Below, piece by piece: positions 1-42,137 of a DNA stretch of 42,137 nucleotides. The DNA comes from a virus. The notes below the pieces were generated by a model, which saw only the letters and a list, made by a program, of their open reading frames with translations, was not told the origin of the DNA and searched no databases. The stretch lies in IMG/VR virus record IMGVR_UViG_3300029109_000001; one strand, given 5' to 3'. A program made the translations under genes and the position numbers. Within the stretch, counting starts at the first letter, position 1, and every line of letters begins with the position of its first letter.

Positions 1-1090
1 AAAGGATTTCCGGGTAATTATGGATGGTGAGTTTTTGTGCTTCTCGCACCATTTGGTTAAGTTTGTCCCCTAAATTGCTTGGCGTGAATCCTGTTAATGC
101 TTTTTGTTTGTTTTGTTTGGTGCGGGTTTGTTGCTTCTTCGTTGCTAGTTCCATTAGCGCTGTTTGCGTACCGGCAGGTGATGGGGCTTGTGGTGTTTCG
201 TTAGATTGTTTATCGACAGCTTGCGGAATCTTGGCGTCTAACTCTACTTTCTCGTTGGGTGTCTTTGATGATTCGTGTTGTTTTACGATTGATTGAACGA
301 ATTTTTTAATCCCCAATTGTTTGTTGAGGTCGCGGGAGTTGGCTTCTTTGTTGGCGAGTGCCTCGCAAATACTTATCACGATGTTATGAACATATTTTTC
401 CCCATAAGGACTGCGGAGTATGGTGCCGCTGATGGTGATGCCGGTTATTTCTTCAAAAAATGAGCTCGTGATGATTCGTTCCAGGTTTGTGTACCCACGC
501 TCGTGGACGCGATCAATAACATCTGCGAACCCTTCATACTCATCTCGTAAGTTGATCGCTGTGTAGAAAAACGCAAGAGTTTTTGGGCAGTTATTAGGGT
601 TACGGTTGTATTCGTCTCTGTCTTTTTCGAAGGCTCCCCAGGGCTTCATGGCCGCCCCACCTTGCCCACTTGCGTGTTTGAGTGTGATCCATGGTGCGGC
701 ATCTACTCGGTGCTTAAAGATCACGGCCCTTACTTCGGTGATAGGATTATGCCCCTTCACTATGTTTTCAGCTTGCGTCTGTTGCCTTTCGCTCAGTAGC
801 TGGAGTGTTGGTTTGTGTTGTTGTAGTAGCCGTAACGCGAATAATCTACGGTTCCCTTCTAGAACGATGTACCGGTTTCCGTGGTTAAGAAGGAGAATAT
901 TTTCAGAGGGAGACAGCTCTCCATACTTTACGATGTGTTTTAGCAGTTCAATACAGCTTTGCCATTCCGCTCTAGCCATTTCTCGGATCAGTTCATCTTG
1001 AGAAGGAGTTTCGTTCGCTAGAGTTAATCGGGCGTTTCTATCATCGAAATCTAAGAGATCAACCTTAATAATTTCCGGCATGTTAACCAT
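1..1090 (-). CDS. ParB/Srx-like nuclease-domain protein, N-terminal 363 codons; continues at 42038..41701, about 475 aa in total
   Basis: Hand translation of the minus strand from ATG 1090 gives MVNMPEIIKVDLL...ENILLLNHGNRYIVLEGNRRLFALRLL, which is ParB box II GNRR. The ORF runs off coordinate 1 and stays in frame with 41701..42090(-). About 42% GC. Confidence 0.7.
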   Translation of the reverse strand, partial: MVNMPEIIKVDLLDFDDRNARLTLANETPSQDELIREMARAEWQSCIELLKHIVKYGELSPSENILLLNHGNRYIVLEGNRRLFALRLLQQHKPTLQLLSERQQTQAENIVKGHNPITEVRAVIFKHRVDAAPWITLKHASGQGGAAMKPWGAFEKDRDEYNRNPNNCPKTLAFFYTAINLRDEYEGFADVIDRVHERGYTNLERIITSSFFEEITGITISGTILRSPYGEKYVHNIVISICEALANKEANSRDLNKQLGIKKFVQSIVKQHESSKTPNEKVELDAKIPQAVDKQSNETPQAPSPAGTQTALMELATKKQQTRTKQNKQKALTGFTPSNLGDKLNQMVREAQKLTIHNYPEIL

Positions 1091-1160
1091 GGACTAAGTT
1101 TAACTGTAAAAATGGTAAACCGTTATGAAAAACCAAAAATGATATGGAGATTTAACCAAA

Positions 1161-1190
1161 GAAAACCCCCGGAAGCCCGGGGGTTTGTTG
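1161..1190. terminator. Bidirectional rho-independent terminator-like hairpin
   Basis: Stem cccccgg / ccggggg around loop aagc, with an A-run on one side and tttgttg on the other. Confidence 0.5.
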
Positions 1191-1192
1191 CC

Positions 1193-1426
1193 TTATTGTG
1201 TCGTTTTGATTGGTGAGCCGGGGCGGTTAGCGTGCCAGGTTTTCACCTCCTCTGCGTCCCATAGGGGTGTGCGGCCATCGAGGTGTGCGACTGGTTGGGG
1301 TGTGCGGCCGCCTGCGTGGTAGTTCGCCCAGGTGCGTGGTCCGATACCGCAGCAGGTGGCGCAGTCGATGACTCGCCATAGCACCCGGCCTGTGGCTTGG
1401 TCGGTGATGATAGGGATTACCGTCAT
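1193..1426 (-). CDS. AlpA / excisionase-family HTH DNA-binding protein, 77 aa
   Basis: MTVIPIITDQATGRVLWRVIDCATCCGIGPRTWANYHAGGRTPQPVAHLDGRTPLWDAEEVKTWHA matches the AlpA pattern (FP.Pv.lg.R...W...eV..W). Its ATG overlaps the upstream stop as ATGA. Confidence 0.55.
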   Translation of the reverse strand: MTVIPIITDQATGRVLWRVIDCATCCGIGPRTWANYHAGGRTPQPVAHLDGRTPLWDAEEVKTWHANRPGSPIKTTQ

Positions 1427-1557
1427 TGGTCGAATTCCCGTGCTAGCAGGGTGATGATGCCAATTGTGTAGATCAGTAGCCATAGTGGGTTCGGCCGGGT
1501 GTAGAGGAACACCGCAACGGCAACTGAAATGCCCCATCGGATTGATGTTTTCACCAT
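1423..1557 (-). CDS. Small membrane protein, 44 aa
   Basis: caAGGAGAcaATG start; sequence MVKTSIRWGISVAVAVFLYTRPNPLWLLIYTIGIITLLAREFDQ; translationally coupled to the AlpA-like gene. Confidence 0.5.
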   Translation of the reverse strand: MVKTSIRWGISVAVAVFLYTRPNPLWLLIYTIGIITLLAREFDQ

Positions 1558-1594
1558 TGTCTCCTTGTAAGAAAGGGTAGTGTGGAGGGGTGCC

Positions 1595-1623
1595 CCCCGC
1601 CCCATATATGCCATGGGGCGGGG
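1595..1623. other. 9-bp GC stem-loop between the two small membrane ORFs, with no U-run
   Basis: ccccgcccc-atatatgccat-ggggcgggg. Confidence 0.5.
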
Positions 1624-1626
1624 AGG

Positions 1627-1767
1627 CTACTTCCGCTTTCCGCGCCGGTATCGCTTCACGCCTTTCCGGTGCTTCCCAGGCTTACCGCCTCTTGGGAAAA
1701 ACCAGGCCAGAAGGCCGAGAATAATACCAGCTGCTTCCCACGGACTGGGGGAGCGCCAGGGTGACAT
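1627..1767 (-). CDS. Small membrane protein with a polybasic tail, 46 aa
   Basis: Very strong RBS GGAGGGAGGTGAtgacATG; sequence MSPWRSPSPWEAAGIILGLLAWFFPRGGKPGKHRKGVKRYRRGKRK; lies downstream of a consensus promoter. Confidence 0.5.
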   Translation of the reverse strand: MSPWRSPSPWEAAGIILGLLAWFFPRGGKPGKHRKGVKRYRRGKRK

Positions 1768-1822
1768 GTCATCACCTCCCTCCACTATTGAGTTCTCCCT
1801 GTTCCTTGGTGGAACACTACCC

Positions 1823-1852
1823 ATTATACAGTTCTAGAACGTTACGTGTCAA
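1823..1852 (-). promoter_or_regulatory. Consensus sigma70-type promoter (-35 TTGACA 1852-1847, -10 TATAAT 1828-1823) with the palindrome GTTCTAGAAC in the 18-nt spacer
   Basis: Reverse complement reads TTGACAcgtaacGTTCTAGAACtgTATAAT. Confidence 0.6.
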
Positions 1853-1918
1853 GTGGGGGTATTATAAAAAATAACCCCCACCCTCGTGATGAGGATAGGG
1901 GACTTGGCTTATAACAAT

Positions 1919-2251
1919 CTAGCTATAAAAACCGCGCCGGGGATTAAGAATATCTGCGATCCATCCAATCATGAACAACCCCATTGTGCATGTGTATAGA
2001 ACCCCTTTGCCGATTTTCCCTACATAGTAGTGGTGCAACCCGATGTAGCCACCAAAGAAAAGGCAAAGAAGATAGACCGTGTAGCTCTTGTTGCGTGGTG
2101 CTACGCCAATGGTTGGTCCGACGTGAACGTGAACGGTTTGCTGATTTTGCTGGGTCACGTTGTTTTGGTTCTGATTCCAGGTCTGTGGTCCTTGGGGCCC
2201 TTGAAAATTGTTGAAGTCATTAGGCCCTTAGGGACCATAGTTGTTGGACAT
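1919..2251 (-). pseudogene. TM2-domain membrane protein gene interrupted by an in-frame TAA at codon 8. The ORF caller reports only 1919..2158 from a GTG start.
   Basis: GAGGAGGattttcATG at 2251, then MSNNYGP*GPNDFNNFQGPQGPQTWNQNQNNV-TQQNQQ..., all in frame. The C-terminus carries the TM2 signature YLLCLFFGGYIGLHHYYVGKIGKGVLY. Confidence 0.55.
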
Positions 2252-2287
2252 GAAAATCCTCCTCGAAATTTAAGTAAATATTAAGAA

Positions 2288-2698
2288 TCAGGCTGGTTGT
2301 GCCTGTAGCGAGCATTGGCGTGTAGTTCGGCCTGATCTGTAGAGTCGCCACCAGGTTTTTAGCATGTGTGGGGTGACTCCTAGTTCGGCGGCTATTGCTG
2401 CTGGTTCGAACTCGGTTTCGTAGGCTACACGCTGCACTGCTGCTTCATTGAGTAAGTGGTCGGCTGCCCATTCGTCCGCTTCCCGTTCTGCCTGTGGCGT
2501 GGAACAGTCATGGGCGTAATAGGCGTGTCCGAGTTCGTGCGCTACCGCACACGCTCGCGTGACGGGATCGAGCCCAGCCCGAACATAAACTGCCCGGCCG
2601 GGGCGGTAAAACACCGCATTGTATGAGGTATCTAATCGTCTACTTTCGACGACCGTGATACCCATGGAGAGAGCCAAATCATCAATAGGTAGATTCAT
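2288..2698 (-). CDS. ImmA/IrrE-family zinc metallopeptidase
   Basis: HEXXH motif AHELGHAYYAHD; sits next to an HTH repressor; RBS AGAGGGAtaaATG. Confidence 0.75.
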   Translation of the reverse strand: MNLPIDDLALSMGITVVESRRLDTSYNAVFYRPGRAVYVRAGLDPVTRACAVAHELGHAYYAHDCSTPQAEREADEWAADHLLNEAAVQRVAYETEFEPAAIAAELGVTPHMLKTWWRLYRSGRTTRQCSLQAQPA

Positions 2699-2853
2699 TT
2701 ATCCCTCTATTTCTATTATGGGGAAGGTAAATGAATTATAGGCAAGGGTTAAGGTTTTTCTCAATAAAGTGAGATATTTCCCACGTTGATATTCGAGGGG
2801 AAAGTATAAAAAGAAATTTATAGATACACGTAATTGACCGGTTTTGGCCGGAA

Positions 2854-3366
2854 TTAGGGGGTATTTTCTTCCAATGGCGGCGTGCGCTTCTGAGCTGCGA
2901 ATTTGACTTTCCCCGCATTGATCTGCTCAATGATTGCATCATGATCCACCTCGGCGGAAACATCCGGCTTGAGCTCAGGTTTTAGTTCATTTGCTACGTC
3001 ATTGCGGGATGGGGTGTTGCTTTGTACTACGGAATCGAAGTTTTCTTCCCATATGTCGTCTTTTGAATCGACTCGCCTGGCTAATTCTCGAATTAGTTGA
3101 CGGTCGGTGAGTAGCTGTGCGACTGAAGTTTCATTGATTCCTATCGCTTCTTTGGCTGTGATGTATCCAGTGGCGACCAGCGCCTTGACGGGGGACTCCC
3201 CATAGCCACGAGCGATAGCGATGACGACTTCAGCAGTAAAAACCCCCTTATTGATTTGCCGATTCACTGTTGCTACAGAGATTTGAGAGCGATTGGCAAT
3301 TGCTCGCCCACTTGCATCCCCTGCTAGCCCTTTGATCCATTTTAGGTGATCTGTCATGCGTTCCAT
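2854..3366 (-). CDS. CI-like HTH phage repressor (ImmR-type)
   Basis: HTH GRAIANRSQISVATVNRQINKG; divergent from the Cro-like gene across an operator region. Confidence 0.7.
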   Translation of the reverse strand: MERMTDHLKWIKGLAGDASGRAIANRSQISVATVNRQINKGVFTAEVVIAIARGYGESPVKALVATGYITAKEAIGINETSVAQLLTDRQLIRELARRVDSKDDIWEENFDSVVQSNTPSRNDVANELKPELKPDVSAEVDHDAIIEQINAGKVKFAAQKRTPPLEENTP

Positions 3367-3510
3367 TATCCACTACATAGCATTATTGCGCAAGTTGGGT
3401 CGGCCCATTTAAGTGCGTAAATGATGAAATTTGTGTATCCACTTGCGCATATTGGACGCTATGTCTTATAGTGATTCATGTAGCGCAAATTGAATCACTG
3501 GGAGGTGGAT
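3367..3510. promoter_or_regulatory. Immunity switch region with three operator-like repeats (YGCGCAWRTTGR)
   Basis: tTGCGCAAgTTGG at 3386-3398 (core TTGCGCAA palindromic), cTTGCGCAtaTTGG at 3442-3455, taGCGCAAaTTGA at 3482-3494; TATAGT -10 at 3468-3473. Confidence 0.55.
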
Positions 3511-3738
3511 ATGCGGTACAAATTGAGCCCCTTAGTGCTCGACAAAATTCGGTCTAACCGTGGTTTTTCTTCAGACGCCCAGTTAGCCCATGAGGTGGGT
3601 GTAACGGTAGGGACAATTAGCAATATTCGCAGGGGCGCTACCCCCAGCTTTAAAACCGCGATCAGGCTGTTGGAATTGGCTGATATCACCGACATGCGTG
3701 CAGCCATTGTCAAAGTTGCAGAGGCCCCTGCTGCGTGA
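3511..3738 (+). CDS. Cro-like HTH regulator, 75 aa
   Basis: GGGAGGTGGatATG start; HTH DAQLAHEVGVTVGTISNIRRG. The ORF track's TTG start at 3490 overlaps the operator. Confidence 0.65.
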   Translation: MRYKLSPLVLDKIRSNRGFSSDAQLAHEVGVTVGTISNIRRGATPSFKTAIRLLELADITDMRAAIVKVAEAPAA

Positions 3739-3780
3739 TTCGCGCCGGGGCGTCGTAAAGCAAAGAAAGGAAAAGGGAAA

Positions 3781-4293
3781 ATGACGCAGTTTTTTATGAA
3801 ACGTCTGCGTATGTTGTCTGGGCCACCGGTTTTAGCGAGTGTCCGAAAGGTCCCGGTCTTCGGGGAACACAATATCGTTACTGTAGACCTCGATTCGCCG
3901 GTGTCCGTACCGGTTACCCGAATGAAGGAAATCGAGTACCTCGTCGAATTCATCCTCCGTCAGATTGCGTCTGAAATAGGAGTTCGGGACTTCCGGGATG
4001 AAAAAGTCGATTTCATCCTCAGCAGTCACGTAGGTCGGGTCAAATCCTTCAACGCTCAGGTGGAACGGCACACCATCCTTGTCCAGCTGGTTGATACACC
4101 AGCGGAGGAGGGGGAACGCCCAGTCCGTAATCTCGTATTGGTCCATATTGATTTGAAGTATCCACGTTTGGTGCATGTACGCAGAATACTGCGAAAACTA
4201 CGAGTTCGCTGGGTAATGGCTAAAGACGTGTTTGGCGGTAAGGACTTTGTCAGTGTGAAAAATATTGATAAGGGGAAAGACTCCGATGCGTGA
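3781..4293 (+). CDS. Hypothetical early protein, 170 aa (plus-strand reading of an ambiguous locus)
   Basis: Strong RBS AAAGGAAAAGGGAAAATG; its stop overlaps the next start (ATGCGTGA). The protein is V/R-rich, which also fits the antisense of an acidic gene. Confidence 0.4.
   Translation: MTQFFMKRLRMLSGPPVLASVRKVPVFGEHNIVTVDLDSPVSVPVTRMKEIEYLVEFILRQIASEIGVRDFRDEKVDFILSSHVGRVKSFNAQVERHTILVQLVDTPAEEGERPVRNLVLVHIDLKYPRLVHVRRILRKLRVRWVMAKDVFGGKDFVSVKNIDKGKDSDA
3832..4176 (-). CDS. Alternative reading of the same locus: a very acidic 114-aa protein
   Basis: Natural-looking composition, net charge about -16, but no clear RBS. It would need divergent promoters in 4177-4285. Confidence 0.3.
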   Translation of the reverse strand: MHQTWILQINMDQYEITDWAFPLLRWCINQLDKDGVPFHLSVEGFDPTYVTAEDEIDFFIPEVPNSYFRRNLTEDEFDEVLDFLHSGNRYGHRRIEVYSNDIVFPEDRDLSDTR

Positions 4294-4474
4294 GGTAATG
4301 ATTGCCCCGCAGTGGCTGACGGTCAAGCAGGCTGCGGAGTATATGCAGGTTAGCACGGATACGGTGGAGAAATTAATTGCGGAGAAAGCGTTGGTGGCGA
4401 CGTATTTCAGCCAGCGCACCCGGCGGATCAACCGTGACTCGATCGAAGCGCTAGCGAAGGAAAATCTGGTTTAG
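4286..4474 (+). CDS. Excisionase-family HTH DNA-binding protein (HTH_17-like), 62 aa
   Basis: AAGGGGAAAgactccgATG start; HTH-like motif LTVKQAAEYMQVSTDTVEKLI. Confidence 0.6.
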   Translation: MREVMIAPQWLTVKQAAEYMQVSTDTVEKLIAEKALVATYFSQRTRRINRDSIEALAKENLV

Positions 4475-4486
4475 AAGGAGTTGATT

Positions 4487-5050
4487 GTGATGGGTGAAGA
4501 TATTGATCTGGAGAAGGAAATGCGCTTCCTTGTGGGTTTGACGGAGGAGTTAGCTCCTGTCAAGGTGAGTGCCTTTCGAGATGCGTGTGTGCGTGCAGTG
4601 AAAAGTAAGAGTGGTAAGGATGAGGACAAAAGCCTTGATGTGCTGGCGCGTGATGCGTTAGCTGAACTTGGCCTGTCGGTAAGGGACCTGACTAAGCAAC
4701 AGTTAGCTAGTGTTCGGGCGGCTTGTGGTATTTACCGATATGTCGCCGATGTTCTTAATGATAAGACGATCAACCTGGACGATCTGAAGGAAGCCGCCGG
4801 GGGTAAGGAAGACTCTGAGTCTGAGGGTCAGAGCGAAAGTGCTTCTGAAGAGTCGTTGGGTGATGTGCTGGTGGAGGTGTCCAACCCTCGTGTAGAGGTG
4901 CAGATCACCACGACAGGTGTGATGATCCGCCCGCAGACCGGGGAACAGCGCCTGTGGCTGAGTACCGCTGACGCGAAGTTCTTGGCGACGGTGGTCAATA
5001 ACCGGCCGGGATTGGTGAGCGATACGTGGTTCACCAAGGGGGGTGAATAA
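4487..5050 (+). CDS. Hypothetical protein
   Basis: GAAGGAG RBS; acidic Ser/Glu-rich linker; its TAA stop overlaps the next ATG. Confidence 0.55.
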   Translation: MMGEDIDLEKEMRFLVGLTEELAPVKVSAFRDACVRAVKSKSGKDEDKSLDVLARDALAELGLSVRDLTKQQLASVRAACGIYRYVADVLNDKTINLDDLKEAAGGKEDSESEGQSESASEESLGDVLVEVSNPRVEVQITTTGVMIRPQTGEQRLWLSTADAKFLATVVNNRPGLVSDTWFTKGGE

Positions 5051-5682
5051 TGTCAGCGTTTTTCGATGGTTCCGTAGTTATCGCCGTGGCTGAGCGTGTA
5101 CGAGATGACGCTATCGCGGTTTATCCCGGTTGGTGTTCTCCAAGTGATATGGAAGTCAAGGATAGTGGTGACGGTTTCCCCTTTGCCCCCAGAGACATAT
5201 ACCCCGGATCTACTACGGGGCCACTGGCTGGGGTGCTTAGCGACTTCATCGAAATGTTCTTGAAGCACGCCGCTGATGTCGAAACTAATCTCATCAAAAC
5301 CGGCCACTTCCTTACGGAAACAGTGCGCTACAGGACTGCCTTCACGCTTGACGAAGACGGCAACGTTAAAAGCATCATGGGGGCTGCCATTCCGAACAGT
5401 GACGGCACCATTGTTGTCATCAATTTGGATTTGCCAGTCGTAGATGAGATTGTCCGTGGTTGCTGCGAGCGCCCGATCGCTGATCGTGTTCGCGTCTTCA
5501 GCCAGCTTGTTCGCTATTTCCGAGATGCGGTTGGCTTCCATAGCAGTATCGAGGCTTTCCCGAGCGGTTTCGTTAGCGGTTTCGGCAAGGCTATTGGCCT
5601 TCTTACTGATGCGATTCGCGTGTACCGCAAGCAGCAGGCCACCGGCCCCGGTGGCGGCTCCGATGATCCCAAGGATGATTGA
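5050..5682 (+). CDS. Hypothetical protein, 210 aa (favoured reading of an ambiguous locus)
   Basis: GGGGGGtgaataATG start, coupled to the upstream gene as taATG. Confidence 0.4.
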   Translation: MSAFFDGSVVIAVAERVRDDAIAVYPGWCSPSDMEVKDSGDGFPFAPRDIYPGSTTGPLAGVLSDFIEMFLKHAADVETNLIKTGHFLTETVRYRTAFTLDEDGNVKSIMGAAIPNSDGTIVVINLDLPVVDEIVRGCCERPIADRVRVFSQLVRYFRDAVGFHSSIEAFPSGFVSGFGKAIGLLTDAIRVYRKQQATGPGGGSDDPKDD

Positions 5683-5691
5683 TGAATCCAC
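5053..5691 (-). CDS. Alternative antisense reading: TM plus coiled-coil protein, 212 aa
   Basis: GTG start with no SD. Its stop lies 2 bp from the stop of a convergent gene, which argues against it, but the product looks very protein-like (IILGIIGAATGAGGLLLAV TM helix). Confidence 0.25.
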   Translation of the reverse strand: MDSSIILGIIGAATGAGGLLLAVHANRISKKANSLAETANETARESLDTAMEANRISEIANKLAEDANTISDRALAATTDNLIYDWQIQIDDNNGAVTVRNGSPHDAFNVAVFVKREGSPVAHCFRKEVAGFDEISFDISGVLQEHFDEVAKHPSQWPRSRSGVYVSGGKGETVTTILDFHITWRTPTGINRDSVISYTLSHGDNYGTIEKR

Positions 5692-5746
5692 GTGGCCTAT
5701 TGAAGCAGACGGGGCGAATTGTCATAAAGCGAAACGGGGTTTTGTG

Positions 5747-5923
5747 ATGTCACGTTACATGTCAACCCGGGAGGCAGCGGAGTATCTGCGGATTTCAACC
5801 CGCACGTTGCAGCGATATGCAAGGGAAGGGCGACTGTCTCGGATCCGACTTTCTCGGCAAAAGATTTTGTACATCCGTGCGGAGGTAGAGGAGCTGGTGG
5901 AGCGCAACACCTATCGCATCTAG
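5747..5923 (+). CDS. Excisionase-family HTH DNA-binding protein (paralog of 4286..4474), 58 aa
   Basis: MSTREAAEYLRISTRTLQRYAREGRL; GGGG then 7 nt then ATG. Confidence 0.6.
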   Translation: MSRYMSTREAAEYLRISTRTLQRYAREGRLSRIRLSRQKILYIRAEVEELVERNTYRI

Positions 5924-5967
5924 ACAGGCTATCTCAGCCCCGCTGCCGGCGGGTTATCCGGCACCAG

Positions 5968-6038
5968 GCCCATGAAATGGCCGCATCCTTCCGGGCTTCA
6001 TATGGATGCTGCGGGTTCGACCCCCGCCATGGGCACCA
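5968..6038 (+). other. tRNA-like fragment with an intact acceptor stem, T-arm, discriminator and CCA, but no canonical D or anticodon arms
   Basis: GCCCATG ... GCGGG-TTCGACC-CCCGC-CATGGGC-A-CCA. The T-loop matches TTCRANY; the 36-nt interior does not fold as a cloverleaf. Confidence 0.45.
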
Positions 6039-36753: not shown

Positions 36754-38232
36754 TTGTTAACAATTCTTGATTACAGTGCTGGCGTGCCGCCAGCTGCGGC
36801 GATTCGCGCTGCTGGCCATGATGGCGTGATCCGCTACATCAGTCCACCCAGGGCCAGCTGGATGCTAGGTAAACCCATCCAGAAGGCTGAACTCGGTGAC
36901 CTCCAGGCGCATGGCCTGGGGGTCGCTTTCATATGGCAGTTCGGAAAAGAAGATGATTCCGACGTGATGCGCGGCTATAACGGTGGTTTGGCCGATGCCC
37001 AGGCGGCCCAGCAGAAACTCGACGAGCTCGACTGTTCTGAACATCCCGTGTTCTTTGCGGTGGATTTCCCTATCAGCCTTGACGAGTGGAACGGCGTTGC
37101 CTCCGAGTATTTTCGTGCCTGCTGTGAAGTCTTGGGGCGTGAACGAGTCGGTATTTACGGGCATTCCAGGGTGATCGCTTGGGCTGCCGCAGATGCGCTT
37201 ATTGCTGACTTGGGCGGCGGAAAGTTCCTGGCGTGGCAGACTGCGGCCTGGAGCGGAGGCGTCCTATCCACGGAAGCAGTGCTGTACCAGCGCCCGGGTA
37301 GCGAGACCGTGGGTGGTGTTGACTGCGATATCAATTTTGCGCTTGCCGACTACTGGGGCCAACACCCAAACAACACCGCATCACGCCACGCCCCCGACCC
37401 AGTACCCGAAACCTTAGCCCAAGAAGAAGGAGAAACCATGGAAACAAGAATCCGATACGATGCCGATTTCACCGCGGACATGCCCGGCGTCGGCTACCGC
37501 TCCCTCGATGCTATTCAGTCGATCTGTGTCCACACGGTGGAGTGCCCGCCGGAACGTGATGGTATTGCCGTCGCCCAGTGGCAAACGAATCCAGCTAATG
37601 GCTCTAGCTATAACGTGCTCGCCGGCGCCGAAGGCAACCTCATTTTGTGCAACACGGATGATTTCATGCCGTACGCAGCAGGCCCCACCGGTAATGCTCG
37701 CTGCCTGCACATCAGTTTGACCGGCTACGCCAGCATGAGCCGCGAAAACTGGATTGACGACGACGCAAAGCTGCGGCGGACCGCCGAACAAATCGCCAGC
37801 TGGTCGCAACTCTACGACATCCCCCTAGAGTTCATCGACGCCGATCAACTCCGTACCGGGGCTCGTGGCGTTCATGGGCATGCGGAAATCTCTGAGGCCT
37901 GGAGGGAAGTCGATCACACTGACCCCGGCCCCGGTTTCCCGTTTGATGTCGTGCTGGCCTACGCCACCGAGCTCCTCGACTCACCGAACCAACCACAACA
38001 AGAAGAAGGAGAACCACGCATGGTGCGCTGGATCCTAGACCAACTAGTTGGTCCCGAATGGCAGGACAACAAACCACTTTTCACCGGCTGGAAAGCCACC
38101 GAAGGTAAAACCTTTGTCGACTTCGTGGCCGAAAAAATCAAGCTCATCCCGGAGATTGCCCGCACGGTAGCCACGCTACCGGAGCGCCTCGACCGGATCG
38201 AAACCCTACTCAAGGAAGGAAACACCAAGTAA
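36754..38232 (+). CDS. Endolysin with an Rv2525c-like (GH25-like) glycoside-hydrolase-like domain, an N-acetylmuramoyl-L-alanine amidase (amidase_2) domain and a C-terminal domain
   Basis: AAGGAGAaaacaTTG start; DYSAGVP...DGVIRYIS N-domain; HTDPGP amidase_2 motif. Confidence 0.75.
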   Translation: MLTILDYSAGVPPAAAIRAAGHDGVIRYISPPRASWMLGKPIQKAELGDLQAHGLGVAFIWQFGKEDDSDVMRGYNGGLADAQAAQQKLDELDCSEHPVFFAVDFPISLDEWNGVASEYFRACCEVLGRERVGIYGHSRVIAWAAADALIADLGGGKFLAWQTAAWSGGVLSTEAVLYQRPGSETVGGVDCDINFALADYWGQHPNNTASRHAPDPVPETLAQEEGETMETRIRYDADFTADMPGVGYRSLDAIQSICVHTVECPPERDGIAVAQWQTNPANGSSYNVLAGAEGNLILCNTDDFMPYAAGPTGNARCLHISLTGYASMSRENWIDDDAKLRRTAEQIASWSQLYDIPLEFIDADQLRTGARGVHGHAEISEAWREVDHTDPGPGFPFDVVLAYATELLDSPNQPQQEEGEPRMVRWILDQLVGPEWQDNKPLFTGWKATEGKTFVDFVAEKIKLIPEIARTVATLPERLDRIETLLKEGNTK

Positions 38233-39157: not shown

Positions 39158-39296
39158 TGATATTGATTACATTTCAGTAATGTAAACAAAATGGGAAAGT
39201 GGGACATCAGCTAGACCACAATACGTTTCAATCAATGTAAATTACCTGTTAAGAAATATCAATGTTAGAAGTCACCGACTTCTTTGCAAAATAAGG

Positions 39297-39334
39297 CCCC
39301 CACGTTCACCGTGACGTGGGGGTTCTTCTTTTTT
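39297..39334 (+). terminator. Strong rho-independent terminator
   Basis: cccccacgt-tcaccgtg-acgtggggg then ttcttcttttttg. Confidence 0.75.
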
Positions 39335-39396
39335 GCCCTATGAACTGCGTAAAATAATAAGCGACAATAAACGACACACTGGGACATGGGTGTAAA

Positions 39397-39440
39397 CCTG
39401 CGGACCACACATAGACCGCAGGACCGCCCATGGACCACTC
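39397..39440. repeat. Four GGACCRC direct repeats and the inverted repeat CCTGCGG/CCGCAGG just upstream of int
   Basis: cGGACCACac, aGACCGCag, GGACCGCcc, tGGACCACtc. Confidence 0.45.
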
Positions 39441-39461
39441 ACAATCGCAGGAAACCCCCTC

Positions 39462-40622
39462 ATGCCCCCCGCCCCTAAAAAACGCCTCTTCGGCACAATA
39501 GCACGCCTATCCTCCGGTAAATACCGCGCCCGCTACACCGGACCCGACGGCAAAAAATACTCCGGCCCCCACCCATTCTTCACCAAAGACGATGCTGGTG
39601 CTTGGCTCCGCCAAGAACAAAAACTCATTGAGTTCGACGAATGGCAACCCCCACACCTCCGGTACCGGACGAAAGAAGACGCCACCCGAACCGTCGGCGA
39701 GTGGCTATGCCAATGGCTAGACCTTCAAGAAAAACGCCTAAAACCCTCCACCATGGACAACTACCGTGCAGTCCTAGGTCGCCGCATCCTGAACACCACG
39801 GGCAAAGCCGGAAGACTACGCGATATCCCCTTGGTCAAACTCACACGCAAAGACGTGATCGCGTGGTGGGACGCAATAACTATCAAGCATGGATACCAGT
39901 CCTACAACCGCGCCGCCTACTCATGCCTCCGCACCGCTATACAAGCAGCAGTAGATCGAGATCTGATCCCCGCCAGCCCGGTAGATGTACCAGACGCCCG
40001 ACGCCGCCCTAAGCCAGCACGAAAAGAACTTCCCACGGTCGCCACCATGCAGAAAATTATCGACCAACTGAAACCGCCACACCGACTGATAGCAGTCCTC
40101 ACCTTCTTCCACGGCATGCGCATAGGAGAAGTCTTAGGCCTCAGGCGTAAAGACATCACCATCACAGGTGACACTATACTGATCCATATCAGGGGCAACG
40201 CCTACAGGATCGCAGGGAACATGACCTACCAGCCCACTCCCAAAACCAGCGCCAGCCACCGTACCATCCCCGTCTTTAAAAAATTCCACCAAGATATCAT
40301 CGACCACCTGGACACCATTGGCGACAGCCCCGATGCCTTCATTTGCACTAGCAGCACCGGAAGAATCATCTCAGATACTTTTTACAGGTCCGTCCTCCAC
40401 CGTGCTAAAAACCGCGCCGGGATCACCGAGCGTATCAGCCCGCACTATGGCAGGGTGTGGCTTATCACTACATTGGTGGAGCAGGGTATGACGATCCCCG
40501 CTATCGGTGAGCTGCTAGGCCAGGTGGACCTGAAGGTCATCACTGAGATTTATATGCGCACTTCTGATGCTAGGCGGCAGGAGGCATTGCAGCGGGTGAA
40601 TGACTTGCTCATGGGCCCATAA
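39462..40622 (+). CDS. int: Tyrosine integrase
   Basis: Arm-binding-type N-terminus (GTIARLSSGKYRARYTGPDGKKY); catalytic-region motifs (MRIGEVLGLRRKD, HYGRVWLITTL, EIYMRTS). Confidence 0.85.
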   Translation: MPPAPKKRLFGTIARLSSGKYRARYTGPDGKKYSGPHPFFTKDDAGAWLRQEQKLIEFDEWQPPHLRYRTKEDATRTVGEWLCQWLDLQEKRLKPSTMDNYRAVLGRRILNTTGKAGRLRDIPLVKLTRKDVIAWWDAITIKHGYQSYNRAAYSCLRTAIQAAVDRDLIPASPVDVPDARRRPKPARKELPTVATMQKIIDQLKPPHRLIAVLTFFHGMRIGEVLGLRRKDITITGDTILIHIRGNAYRIAGNMTYQPTPKTSASHRTIPVFKKFHQDIIDHLDTIGDSPDAFICTSSTGRIISDTFYRSVLHRAKNRAGITERISPHYGRVWLITTLVEQGMTIPAIGELLGQVDLKVITEIYMRTSDARRQEALQRVNDLLMGP

Positions 40623-40804: not shown

Positions 40805-41704
40805 TCAGAAAAGAATGGGTTCGGGTTGGGTGGTGTTGGGTGTCCATTGCGCGGTGTGTTTTTTGGTGACTTGCAGGTTGGGGATGGTGAGGTTGCTTGA
40901 GTAGATGATTGATTCGGCGCCGACATGTTGGTGGTGGGCTGTGTGGGCGATAGGGAAGATTGCTGCTCGGGCGTGGTGGTAGAGGTCTTCGGTGATGAAG
41001 GGGTCATCATCGTATGTGAGCATCCAGTAAAACGTGGCGTCGGCTAGTTTCTTGGCGAGCGTTTTGTGTTGGGGTTCATCAAAGGCGTGGAGGTAGAGGC
41101 CTTCGCCTTGGCCTAAGTAAGGGGGGTCAGCGTAGACGAAAACGTTTTCACCGTGTTCTTCCATGGTGGTGAGGAAGTCTATGCCTTCTGATTCGGTGAT
41201 GGTGATGTTGTCTGCCATGGCGGCGATAGTGCGGATGCGGTGGCTGAGGTTATCGCGGTTGAATCGGGCGTCGATTTTCCATTTGCCGGTTTGTTCCATA
41301 CCTCCGATAGGTCGGGCACCTAGGATACCGGATCGGCATGTGCGGTTGAGGTAGAAGGTGGCGAACCCGAGTGTGAGGTCATCCTTGTCTTGGGGCGTAT
41401 CGTAAATGTTTTTATAGTGTTTCCATGCATCAATGTTGAGTTCGCAGGTGGCAATGAGGTCGTTGAAGTCTTCAGGTTTTTGGGTGATTGCCCGCCAGAA
41501 TGCTGCGATACCGCGGTTAAGGTCGTTGAGATAAACATGCTCGACGATCCCTTCGTGGAGGAGTTTTAGCGCAGCTCCTGCACCCCCGGCAAAGGGTTCC
41601 GCATAGTAGCGTGGTGGTATTTGTTGGGCGTTGATGAGCGAAGCGATATAGGGGGCAAGTTTCGCTTTGCCGCCTGGATACCGGAGTGGGGAAATAAATC
41701 TCAT
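40805..41704 (-). CDS. Dam-family (D12 class) N6-adenine DNA methyltransferase
   Basis: LRYPGGK, EPFAGGAG and DPPY motifs; its start overlaps the ParB-like stop as ATGA. Confidence 0.8.
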   Translation of the reverse strand: MRFISPLRYPGGKAKLAPYIASLINAQQIPPRYYAEPFAGGAGAALKLLHEGIVEHVYLNDLNRGIAAFWRAITQKPEDFNDLIATCELNIDAWKHYKNIYDTPQDKDDLTLGFATFYLNRTCRSGILGARPIGGMEQTGKWKIDARFNRDNLSHRIRTIAAMADNITITESEGIDFLTTMEEHGENVFVYADPPYLGQGEGLYLHAFDEPQHKTLAKKLADATFYWMLTYDDDPFITEDLYHHARAAIFPIAHTAHHQHVGAESIIYSSNLTIPNLQVTKKHTAQWTPNTTQPEPILF

Positions 41705-42038
41705 AATATTCTATTGTGCCCGAGAGCGTCGTTGATGGCCACCAACACTTCCCGAACTTGGGAGTTGTATTTTTCTACCTCTTCAATATTGGTCACCACA
41801 TTGCAGACGTGCACACCTGTTTGGAGGATTTTTGGTGGGGTGTTATTGAATTTTTGATACAAGGTCTGCAAAGGTGTGTGATTTTGAACCTGACCTGAGT
41901 TGTTGGATGCTTCTGGATTAATGTGCTCTAAGACCAACAACACGCGCTGACAGATATCCATGCCGCGTTCAAAAGTGAGGTTTCGTTCTTTTGCATAGTA
42001 GTGGCAGCCTAAATCTAGCAGGATCCTGTATGTGGCGA
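41701..42038 (-). CDS. C-terminal part of the junction-spanning ParB-like protein
   Basis: In frame with 1..1090(-) across the circular join. The ORF track lists 41701..42090 because the duplicated 99 bp are included. Confidence 0.65.
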
Positions 42039-42137
42039 AAAGGATTTCCGGGTAATTATGGATGGTGAGTTTTTGTGCTTCTCGCACCATTTGGTTAAGT
42101 TTGTCCCCTAAATTGCTTGGCGTGAATCCTGTTAATG
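42039..42137. repeat. 99-bp exact duplicate of positions 1-99 (circular-assembly overlap)
   Basis: Identical string aaaggatttccgggtaattatggatgg...cctgttaatg at both ends. Confidence 0.9.

Follow-up and report, generated by a model that had tools for sequence, protein, structure and literature searches.

What a temperate phage keeps behind a full-consensus promoter in its lysogeny region, and which protein controls that promoter, is the question raised by IMG/VR virus record IMGVR_UViG_3300029109_000001, a 42,137-nucleotide (nt) stretch of viral DNA that is referred to here, as a whole, as the window. Near its left end, on the minus strand, lies a cassette of three very small genes encoding two membrane peptides, pep1 (46 amino acids, aa) and pep2 (44 aa), and a 77-aa helix-turn-helix (HTH) protein. 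The answer proposed, to which about even confidence is attached, is that the cassette belongs to a temperate phage of Corynebacterium matruchotii and forms an accessory operon (a 'moron') that is insulated, regulates itself and carries a membrane-peptide payload; within the lysogeny region it has the immunity genes on one side and the integrase gene on the other. Its promoter, of the housekeeping-sigma type, would fire leftward in the lysogen through pep1, a stem-loop, pep2 and the gene for the 77-aa winged-helix protein, and that protein, probably as a dimer, would bind a 20-base-pair (bp) dyad in the promoter spacer, block RNA polymerase and so exert negative feedback on the output of the operon. 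The stem-loop at the pep1 stop codon, together with another at the 5' end of the mRNA, would set the level and stability of pep1 apart from those of pep2 and the regulator. The payload itself would comprise pep1, one helix with a charged tail and probably a costly or toxic membrane-active effector, and pep2, a two-helix hairpin in fixed ratio with the regulator and probably the partner or immunity factor of pep1. The likeliest role would be a membrane function conferred by the prophage, either in the exclusion of other phages or abortive defence against them, or as an addiction module.

Anatomy and conservation of the three-gene operon

The cassette and the terminators on its two sides consist of the following parts, given from upstream to downstream.

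1875-1901, minus: intrinsic terminator of the upstream TM2-domain gene; 11-bp stem with 7 GC pairs, tail TTATTTTTTA
1847-1852, minus: -35 hexamer TTGACA, full consensus (near-consensus in most of 36 unique related loci)
between the -35 and -10 hexamers, minus: spacer of 18 nt, CGTAACGTTCTAGAACTG
1826-1845, minus: candidate operator, a 20-bp dyad GTAACGTTCTAGAACTGTAT with core GTTCTAGAAC, filling the spacer and overlapping the first -10 bases
1823-1828, minus: -10 hexamer TATAAT, full consensus
1816-1818, minus: predicted transcription start, placed by sequence comparison
1775-1783, minus: Shine-Dalgarno (SD) sequence GGAGGGAGG of pep1 (a strong SD precedes pep1 in nearly all representatives)
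1627-1767, minus: pep1, 46 aa; ATG at 1767, stop at 1629-1627
1423-1557, minus: pep2, 44 aa, with two hydrophobic segments; ATG at 1557, stop at 1425-1423
1193-1426, minus: 77-aa MerR-like winged-helix protein, ATGA-coupled to pep2; putative autoregulator
1163-1186, minus: intrinsic terminator at the operon end; 10-bp stem with 7 GC pairs, tail TCTTTGGTTA, conserved in relatives

The exact pattern TTGACA-N16-18-TATAAT occurs once in the 42,137 bp of the window and in none of 100 shuffles. An earlier reading of the letters alone (the sequence-only reading) had proposed a textbook minus-strand promoter of this form with an 18-nt spacer, and all of its parts are present, in a single perfect copy; the perfect palindrome that it placed in the spacer is there too, as the 10-bp GTTCTAGAAC at 1831-1840, at the conserved operator position and with no other copy in the window. 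Its description of the genes stands as well. As it had said, pep1 is a transmembrane peptide with a ribosome-binding site and a polybasic tail, one hydrophobic segment being followed by 22 residues of which 12 are K or R (net charge +12), and pep2, a helical-hairpin membrane peptide with a T-R-P-N-P turn, is joined by ATGA to the 77-aa open reading frame (ORF), its stop codon overlapping the ATG at 1426. Its view of the cassette as an insulated promoter-to-terminator unit on the immunity-repressor strand agrees with the promoter and the two flanking terminators listed above; because the terminator at 1875-1901 stands just upstream of the promoter, the cassette should be shielded from read-through. 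For the far end, the terminator that it described is present, but the bidirectional use it proposed does not apply to the window, where the next gene is co-directional; a convergent integrase gene is found only in relatives such as L011. The cassette thus has what is expected of a moron, namely its own promoter and terminators, a place between phage modules, variable neighbours, and parts that are deleted or swapped among relatives.

Conservation was assessed from about 100 loci that encode a relative of the 77-aa protein, drawn from scans of viral and genome collections. In an automated survey of 56 unique loci, a small hydrophobic ORF of the pep2 type ends at the start of the HTH gene in 45, a stem-loop of -20 kcal/mol or lower lies upstream in 43, and a pep1-type ORF ends there in 35, figures that are undercounts, several known cases having been missed. 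The same three-gene order is annotated in Gordonia phage Finkle (gp39, 37 aa; gp38, a membrane protein; gp37, HTH), in Rhodococcus phage REQ2 (gp33, gp32 and gp31) and in the C. pseudotuberculosis phage LGCM-VI (0008, 0007 and 0006), and gene order and ATGA-type overlap are common to the Corynebacterium, Gordonia and Rhodococcus phages. Finkle gp39 and gp38 also resemble the peptides of the related locus L029, with which they have AEAR(K/R)WY and A.Y.LGA..LYT...W in common. Both small ORFs are therefore conserved in related prophages, one of the points on which the sequence-only reading had staked its proposal.

That pep1 and pep2 are real genes follows from the manner in which they vary, since third codon positions change most. 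Among close relatives the variable sites of pep2 are distributed 6/3/18 over the three codon positions, and 17 codons differ synonymously only versus 5 with a changed amino acid, a pattern that shows purifying selection; pep1 follows the same trend on fewer sites (3/1/5). Neither peptide has a match in PADLOC, NCBIfam or Pfam, pep2 finds only a chance-level match in PHROGs, and pep1 occurs in just two clusters among 5.8 billion. In C. matruchotii a copy of pep2 that is 98 % identical is annotated as a hypothetical protein. Short public contigs containing pep2 were considered as assembled transcripts that might mark mRNA ends and were rejected, the contigs being metagenome scaffolds. In one relative (L009, ~5600-6004) a single reading frame runs from pep1 into pep2 across the hairpin region, where the G-run has a different length; slippage in G/C runs, or an error of sequencing or assembly, could account for this.

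The operator and its candidate regulator

For the window alone the 20-bp dyad is modest, with 14 of 20 positions symmetric (7 of 10 pairs; shuffle p = 0.08), and the case for an operator therefore depends on comparison across the family. Dyad and arms have no second copy in the 42-kb window and are likewise single-copy in every related locus examined. Because the dyad lies upstream of the predicted transcription start, it should act as a DNA site and not as an RNA structure. Transcription is predicted to begin at 1816-1818, within a G-T-A motif; its A follows the -10 hexamer by 7 nt in most relatives and, the motif being shifted, by 5 nt in the window (A at 1818).

Across the family, the spacer is 18 nt long in 32 of the 36 unique loci and the hexamers are near-consensus in most relatives. 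Among 14 divergent representative promoters, ten have dyads in which 7 or more of the 10 pairs are symmetric; the centre lies between spacer positions 11 and 12 in nine of these and one position earlier in REQ2 (17-nt spacer). Four further examples were found beyond the 14 representatives. The sequences that occupy this position include TAACGTACT/AGTACGTTA (L034), TAACGCTAT/TTAGCGTTA (LGCM), ATAGCGC-N6-GCGCTAT (L078), AACTCT/AGAGTT (L105), GTAGCACG-N4-CGTGCTAC (L090) and ACAGCGC-N2-GCGCTGT (REQ2), and the arms covary, as in TAACG..CGTTA versus TAGCG..CGCTA.

Recombinant loci, in which HTH gene and peptide genes have different histories, bear on which protein reads the dyad. L087 and L098 have HTH proteins that are 91 % identical, pep1/pep2 that are 38 % identical and operators that are 100 % identical, and for L081 versus L087 the corresponding figures are 56 %, 99 % and 60 %. 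In L095 and L097 the operator core TAACGCTATGTAGCGTTA is that of L087 and L098, only the outermost base of the 20-mer being different, and the HTH recognition region is closely similar, but the peptides are of a third type. Over all pairs, operator identity has a Spearman correlation of 0.50 with HTH identity versus 0.29 with peptide identity. Since the dyad tracks the HTH allele across recombinants, and not the intervening peptide genes, the 77-aa protein is the likely operator-binding factor, and the comparison points to its binding there. This allele-level mosaic comparison took the place of a residue-to-base rule, a strict correspondence between R or S in the recognition helix (PRTW versus PSTW) and A or G in the operator arm having been broken by LGCM-VI (PATW with TAACG arms). 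With consensus hexamers, and with a site that extends across the spacer as far as the -10, the likely sign of control by the 77-aa protein is repression and not activation.

A different protein at the same site was also in view in the sequence-only reading, which named CI beside the AlpA-like protein as a possible controller of the promoter. In its wider form, this alternative has the operator bound by the phage CI-type repressor or by a host regulator, the cassette being silent in the lysogen and firing on induction or in response to a host signal. Any repressor at the operator position could block the promoter, the cassette does lie near the immunity genes, and in lineages with a dead pep1 the operator decays while the HTH gene is intact. 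However, the intergenic region between the repressor and cro genes carries a different inverted repeat, ACTTGCGCA (3387-3395, minus; 3441-3449, plus; with related TTGCGC copies), whose copies are likely to be the immunity operators; it is missing from the cassette promoter, and an operator shared with CI was rejected. The dyad, moreover, is single-copy in the whole phage genome, its classes track the HTH allele across recombinants, and the promoter-dyad layout recurs in phages of three genera in which the sole adjoining DNA-binding gene, in every case, is the cassette HTH gene. The actinobacterial LexA box is GAAC-N4-GTTC; the operator, compared by eye, fits neither this nor the DtxR box. Binding by CI or a host regulator is thus rather unlikely, and the gatekeeper is most probably the cassette's own HTH protein and not CI.

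That protein had been called an AlpA/Xis-like HTH, which is right for the fold, a winged helix, and for the clan, but wrong for the family. The AlphaFold2 model has one domain (mean pLDDT 81.5, element order E-H-H-E-E-H) with an HTH, a beta-hairpin wing and a C-terminal helix, as in MerR-like winged-helix proteins. Its top Foldseek matches are RdfS (8dgl, probability 0.97), BldC (6ama) and the Xis of mycobacteriophage Pukovnik (4j2n), and further matches are MerR-family N-terminal domains, MtaN, CarH and the GIsul2 excisionase (TM 0.45-0.62), with E-values that are weak (at least 0.16), as expected for a 77-residue domain. No match at E <= 0.1 was obtained to Pfam Phage_AlpA (PF05930) or HTH_17 (PF12728), and none to the TIGR01764 excisionase-family model; PHROGs yielded phrog_597 ('DNA binding protein', 3e-13) and phrog_66 ('excisionase and transcriptional regulator', 1e-4), and PDB 8c3t, of the AlpA family, was matched at E = 0.083. 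A profile search with the family returned 514 cluster representatives, mostly of 60-100 aa, and because distant relatives found in this way reach Pfam HTH_17 (one above the cutoff, others just below), the 77-aa protein is placed as a divergent branch of the HTH_17 clan. Its family has conserved N-terminal PIITDxDTG and C-terminal RPGSPV motifs, which are extra in comparison with excisionase- and BldC-type proteins.

Given such a fold, the opposite sign of control also has to be weighed: the 77-aa protein might activate from the spacer in the manner of MerR, or might load polymerase, as lambda Q and Pseudomonas AlpA do, for read-through of the hairpin into pep2 and its own gene. The candidate operator does lie between -35 and -10, as do MerR operators and the AlpA binding element (PMC9371919), a likeness of position only. 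The predicted fold is MerR-like, the spacer of 18 nt is the optimum plus one, and a strong hairpin is conserved downstream of the first gene. Full-consensus hexamers, however, should need no activator; spacers in MerR-type promoters are 19-20 bp long, whereas that of the cassette is 18 nt in the window and in the great majority of the 36 loci, and the protein is a single domain of 77 aa, unlike a MerR activator. Pseudomonas AlpA makes its HTH contacts through R128-H142, acts as a monomer on a 6-bp site and sends an N-terminal segment into the RNA exit channel (PMC9371919); the cassette protein is smaller, has a dyad as its site and has no extra domain for such a segment, and the internal hairpin, which lacks the U-tract that both flanking terminators possess, does not fit the downstream intrinsic terminator that antitermination calls for. 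Positive control is improbable on these grounds, and repression by the 77-aa protein is the reading carried forward.

Two further arrangements of the HTH domain were seen. Among the profile-search matches, some proteins of 300-330 aa (P0040, P0048, P0056 and P0057) carry five tandem copies of it. In another set of relatives (L013, L015, L017-L020 and L037; e.g. L013 ~4305-4925), promoter, pep1 and pep2 are replaced and the domain forms the C-terminus of a 206-207-aa protein, similarity breaking at the start of the HTH gene; by eye, the N-terminal part of these proteins looks like an XRE-type helix-turn-helix followed by a coiled coil.

RNA elements, peptides and payload

Three elements of the predicted mRNA enter the argument at this point.

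1801-1815, minus: 5' mRNA stem-loop GTTCC-ACCAA-GGAAC, from fold prediction
1595-1623, minus: internal GC-rich stem-loop, beginning at the pep1 stop codon, with no U-tract
1573-1594, minus: C-rich motif GGGGCACCCCTCCACACTACCC after the internal hairpin, conserved as CCCC(U)CC-ACACUAC

The internal hairpin had been described as 9 bp long and free of a U-run. The second part is correct, only 1 of the 12 following nt being U, unlike both flanking terminators, but the stem has 11 perfect pairs (CCCCGCCCCAT/ATGGGGCGGGG, with a 7-nt loop) and 15 pairs in the minimum-energy fold. An equivalent hairpin is present in all 14 representatives, with 13-20 bp, -22 to -40 kcal/mol and z from -3.1 to -8.4; it starts -3 to +5 nt from the pep1 stop, its loop is 7 nt in 12 of the 14, its stem sequences vary between loci, and in none does a U-tract follow. 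Read most simply, the hairpin would be a 3' stabiliser or a partial stop that sets the pep1 level apart from that of pep2 and the regulator; control coupled to translation is also possible, since ribosomes reaching the end of pep1 would open the lower part of the stem. Close to the predicted mRNA 5' end, at a distance of 1-3 nt, many loci have a stem-loop in which lineages differ in a compensatory way, and relatives show a different hairpin at the same place as the window does (GTGCA..TGCAC or GTGCG..CGCAC); this element is probably an mRNA stabiliser.

Since pep1 has the size and shape of a type I toxin, the cassette might be a type I toxin-antitoxin system in which pep1, like Hok, Fst or TisB, is held back in translation by mRNA folding or by an antisense RNA. 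The pep1 mRNA is highly structured (z = -4.5), its SD is predicted to be paired in most loci and, in the window only, the mRNA 5' end GGGUAGUGU (1822-1814) can pair with ACACUACCC (1583-1575) after the hairpin (p = 0.004 versus shuffles). As a conserved feature, however, that pairing was rejected, own and cross-locus energies over 11 loci being -8.45 and -8.42 kcal/mol (permutation p = 0.48). Nor was support obtained for a specific anti-SD function of the C-rich tail towards pep1, the pairing probability being 0.50 versus 0.41 in composition-matched shuffles. The strand opposite 1423-1852 has no promoter-like site, an Rfam search of window positions 1000-4000 gave no meaningful match, and pep1 shares its transcript with two protein genes. 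A type I system is accordingly the least probable of the alternatives weighed here.

The accessory-operon reading, with pep1 as effector and pep2 as partner, draws instead on how the module decays. With pep2 and the HTH gene intact, pep1 is dead through change of its start codon to ATA plus a frameshift (L005, L036 and L108-110), an early stop (L112), a deletion (L012) or an internal deletion (L089); in L016 and L111, promoter and pep1 are replaced and pep2 and the HTH gene are again intact. No locus among those compared keeps pep1 and has lost pep2. The loci with a dead pep1 have weaker hexamers (TTGATG, CATAAT) and a degraded dyad. Repeated loss of pep1 from modules that keep pep2 and the HTH gene, and the decay of promoter and operator along with a dead pep1, fit a pep1 that is costly or toxic and needs both tight control and a partner. 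Defence genes lie next to the module, a PD-Lambda-5 system in the window phage and a RelA_SpoT-family gene in chromosomal remnants. The latter occur on C. matruchotii chromosomes (L108-L110 and L112), where the cassette, its pep1 dead, sits in a decayed island that adjoins smpB and the tmRNA gene (ssrA). The ssrA-side islands also contain a 380-aa TM2-domain protein and the RelA_SpoT-family gene followed by a 66-aa ORF, the last two of which look like a small alarmone-synthetase toxin with its antitoxin. An integrase gene was found in one of the four chromosomal islands examined; the other three have lost it, yet pep2 and the HTH gene are intact.

A bolder version of the same reading is tentative and clearly less probable than the broad one. 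It would see in the module an unrecognised three-component prophage family of Corynebacterium, Gordonia and Rhodococcus phages, made up of a leaderless toxin (pep1), an immunity peptide (pep2) and a winged-helix autorepressor, in which read-through into the genes for immunity and repression is coupled, by way of the stem-loop, to translation of pep1. The whole would be an abortive-infection or addiction device, and the orphan pep2-regulator pairs on chromosomes would provide anti-addiction immunity.

Several observations weigh against a self-repressed operon with a membrane-active payload. A strong dyad in register is missing from four of the 14 representatives (L031, L041, Finkle and, in part, L032), and the co-variation of operator and HTH could partly reflect linkage, discordant mosaic pairs being few and from related phages. 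The lineages with a dead pep1 keep the HTH gene despite a decayed operator, and on that account the HTH protein may have a second role. As to the payload, the preferential loss of pep1 could just reflect its 5' position at a recombination boundary, and its tail, basic in some relatives, is acidic in Finkle and REQ2, so that no single biophysical mechanism is evident. None of pep1, pep2 and the 77-aa protein matches a PADLOC-DB 2.0 model, and a literature search on the module, Finkle gp37-39 and REQ2 gp31-33 found no functional work.

Excision, genome setting and known systems

The genes around the cassette are as follows.

1919-2158, minus: TM2-domain gene, 79 aa, directly upstream of the cassette
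2288-2698, minus: ImmA/IrrE protease gene
2854-3366, minus: immunity repressor gene, 170 aa
3490-3738, divergent from the repressor-side genes: Cro-like gene
39462-40622, plus: tyrosine integrase gene (int)
40805-41704, minus: PD-Lambda-5 gene B, a Dam-type methyltransferase (PADLOC E = 2.8e-104)
41701-42137 joined to 1-1120, minus: PD-Lambda-5 gene A, with a ParB-like GNRR motif (PADLOC E = 1.5e-57)

As the first 99 bp of the window are identical to its last 99 bp (1-99 and 42039-42137) and an ORF of about 500 aa spans the junction, the contig is that of a circular phage and is complete, at about 42,038 bp; the phage is temperate, with C. matruchotii as host. The cassette shares the minus strand with the immunity repressor and ImmA genes, and a complete PD-Lambda-5 anti-phage system sits between it and int, immediately downstream of the cassette. 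Relatives L001 and L011 are without PD-Lambda-5, and there the cassette adjoins int. In L001, similarity to the window stops at window position 39297, next to a tRNA-Ala gene, and attP is therefore placed just upstream of int.

Excision control, which the sequence-only reading had offered as one possible purpose, would make the 77-aa protein either a recombination directionality factor or, in the manner of AlpA, a protein that activates the integrase gene, with the peptides as passengers. RdfS and the GIsul2 and Pukovnik excisionases are among its best fold matches, phrog_66 and PDB 8c3t (E = 0.083) are matched weakly, and in several relatives (L011, L029 and LGCM) its counterpart adjoins the integrase gene. 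The phage, however, has a separate gene that passes the TIGR01764 model, to which the 77-aa protein has no match: ORF 4265-4474 (plus strand, 69 aa) of the early lytic operon, which scores 45.2 bits against a cutoff of 28.8 and is the better candidate for the phage excisionase on this profile evidence. No operator-like site was found near attP or int in the window, taking the promoter dyad as the protein's site; the two-gene defence system separates cassette from int in this genome; and remnants without an integrase gene still retain the module. A protein that promoted excision would, moreover, destabilise lysogeny if it were expressed in this way, in translational coupling to a membrane peptide and from a consensus promoter on the strand of the repressor. 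An excision role for the module is unlikely, and this alternative is as improbable as positive control; the suggestion was dropped in favour of the accessory operon. A third HTH_17-like sequence lies at the end of ORF 5444-5923.

Other features of the genome were noted alongside. Where similarity to the integrated L001 ends, at 39297-39322, there is a perfect 9-bp hairpin (CCCCCACGT/ACGTGGGGG) with a T-run, and the region upstream of int (39189-39441) contains repeats of GGGACAT (x2) and GGACCAC (x2-3) that are probably attP arm sites. The TM2 ORF at 1919-2158 matches only the C-terminal end of 380-399-aa proteins in relatives (L011 4307-5506; L110 5491-6633) and could be what is left of such a gene after truncation. 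A second near-consensus promoter, TTGAGA-18-TATAAT (11/12), lies at 2735-2764 on the minus strand between the repressor and ImmA genes and is preceded by a terminator-like hairpin (2769-2784, minus); because it follows that hairpin, ImmA may be transcribed separately from the repressor. The sole match in a nucleotide search of the phage collection with window positions 1-6000 was a 113-bp ImmA stretch in Poushou-like phages. The lysis cassette is at ~36-39 kb, with an endolysin-sized ORF at 36754-38232, and the three-gene operon lies outside it.

Gene callers routinely overlook membrane proteins this small, and little is known of what they do in the biology of prophages and their hosts. The present module recurs in phages of three actinobacterial genera and survives in decayed islands of the abundant oral species C. 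matruchotii, and its comparison yields a candidate toxin/partner peptide pair. The regulator-operator pair, with several natural specificity classes, offers orthogonal repressor/operator parts for corynebacteria and, if the payload acts in exclusion or abortive infection, the module would be a very compact addition to prophage-encoded defences.

Among known systems, the 77-aa protein is like RdfS, Pukovnik Xis, the GIsul2 excisionases, E. coli AlpA / P4 Vis and Streptomyces BldC in its size, its predicted fold and its lack of an effector domain, and Vis, RdfS and BldC also act as transcription regulators. It differs from that group in having no Pfam or TIGR01764 match, in its extra conserved terminal motifs and in being always coupled to a membrane peptide; its putative site is a single dyad in its own promoter, unlike the direct-repeat arrays that excisionases use in att sites. 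With MerR-family promoters the cassette has in common a related DNA-binding fold and a spacer dyad of ~18-20 bp that touches the -10. The spacer of 18 nt and not 19-20 nt, the full-consensus hexamers, and a protein without a coiled-coil dimerisation helix or a ligand-binding domain set it apart and make repression likelier than allosteric activation. The P. aeruginosa AlpA/alpBCDE system (PMC7969949, PMC9371919) is similar in having a site between -35 and -10, a downstream hairpin and small lysis or membrane proteins under control, but its AlpA, which is larger, works as a monomeric antiterminator at a 6-bp site, is induced by DNA damage and has its gene away from those that it controls.

For the payload, pep1 is like the type I toxins Hok, Fst and TisB in consisting of one short hydrophobic helix and a strongly charged tail, and pep2 resembles the two-helix hairpin of pinholin-like holins, but no antisense RNA was found (promoter scan, Rfam), the genes lie outside the lysis cassette, and the sign of the tail charge varies among relatives. 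In this region of actinobacteriophage genomes, membrane proteins expressed by the lysogen exclude or abort other phages (PMC6426606). The Charlie membrane protein, Sbash 30/31 and CarolAnn 43/44 (PMC6426606) are like the cassette in their position between integrase and repressor, their own promoter, their membrane payload and a distribution made patchy by recombination. Unrelated to these in sequence, with far smaller proteins (23-60 aa) and a DNA-binding regulator of its own, the module is an uncharacterised form of a familiar theme, the autoregulated prophage accessory operon.

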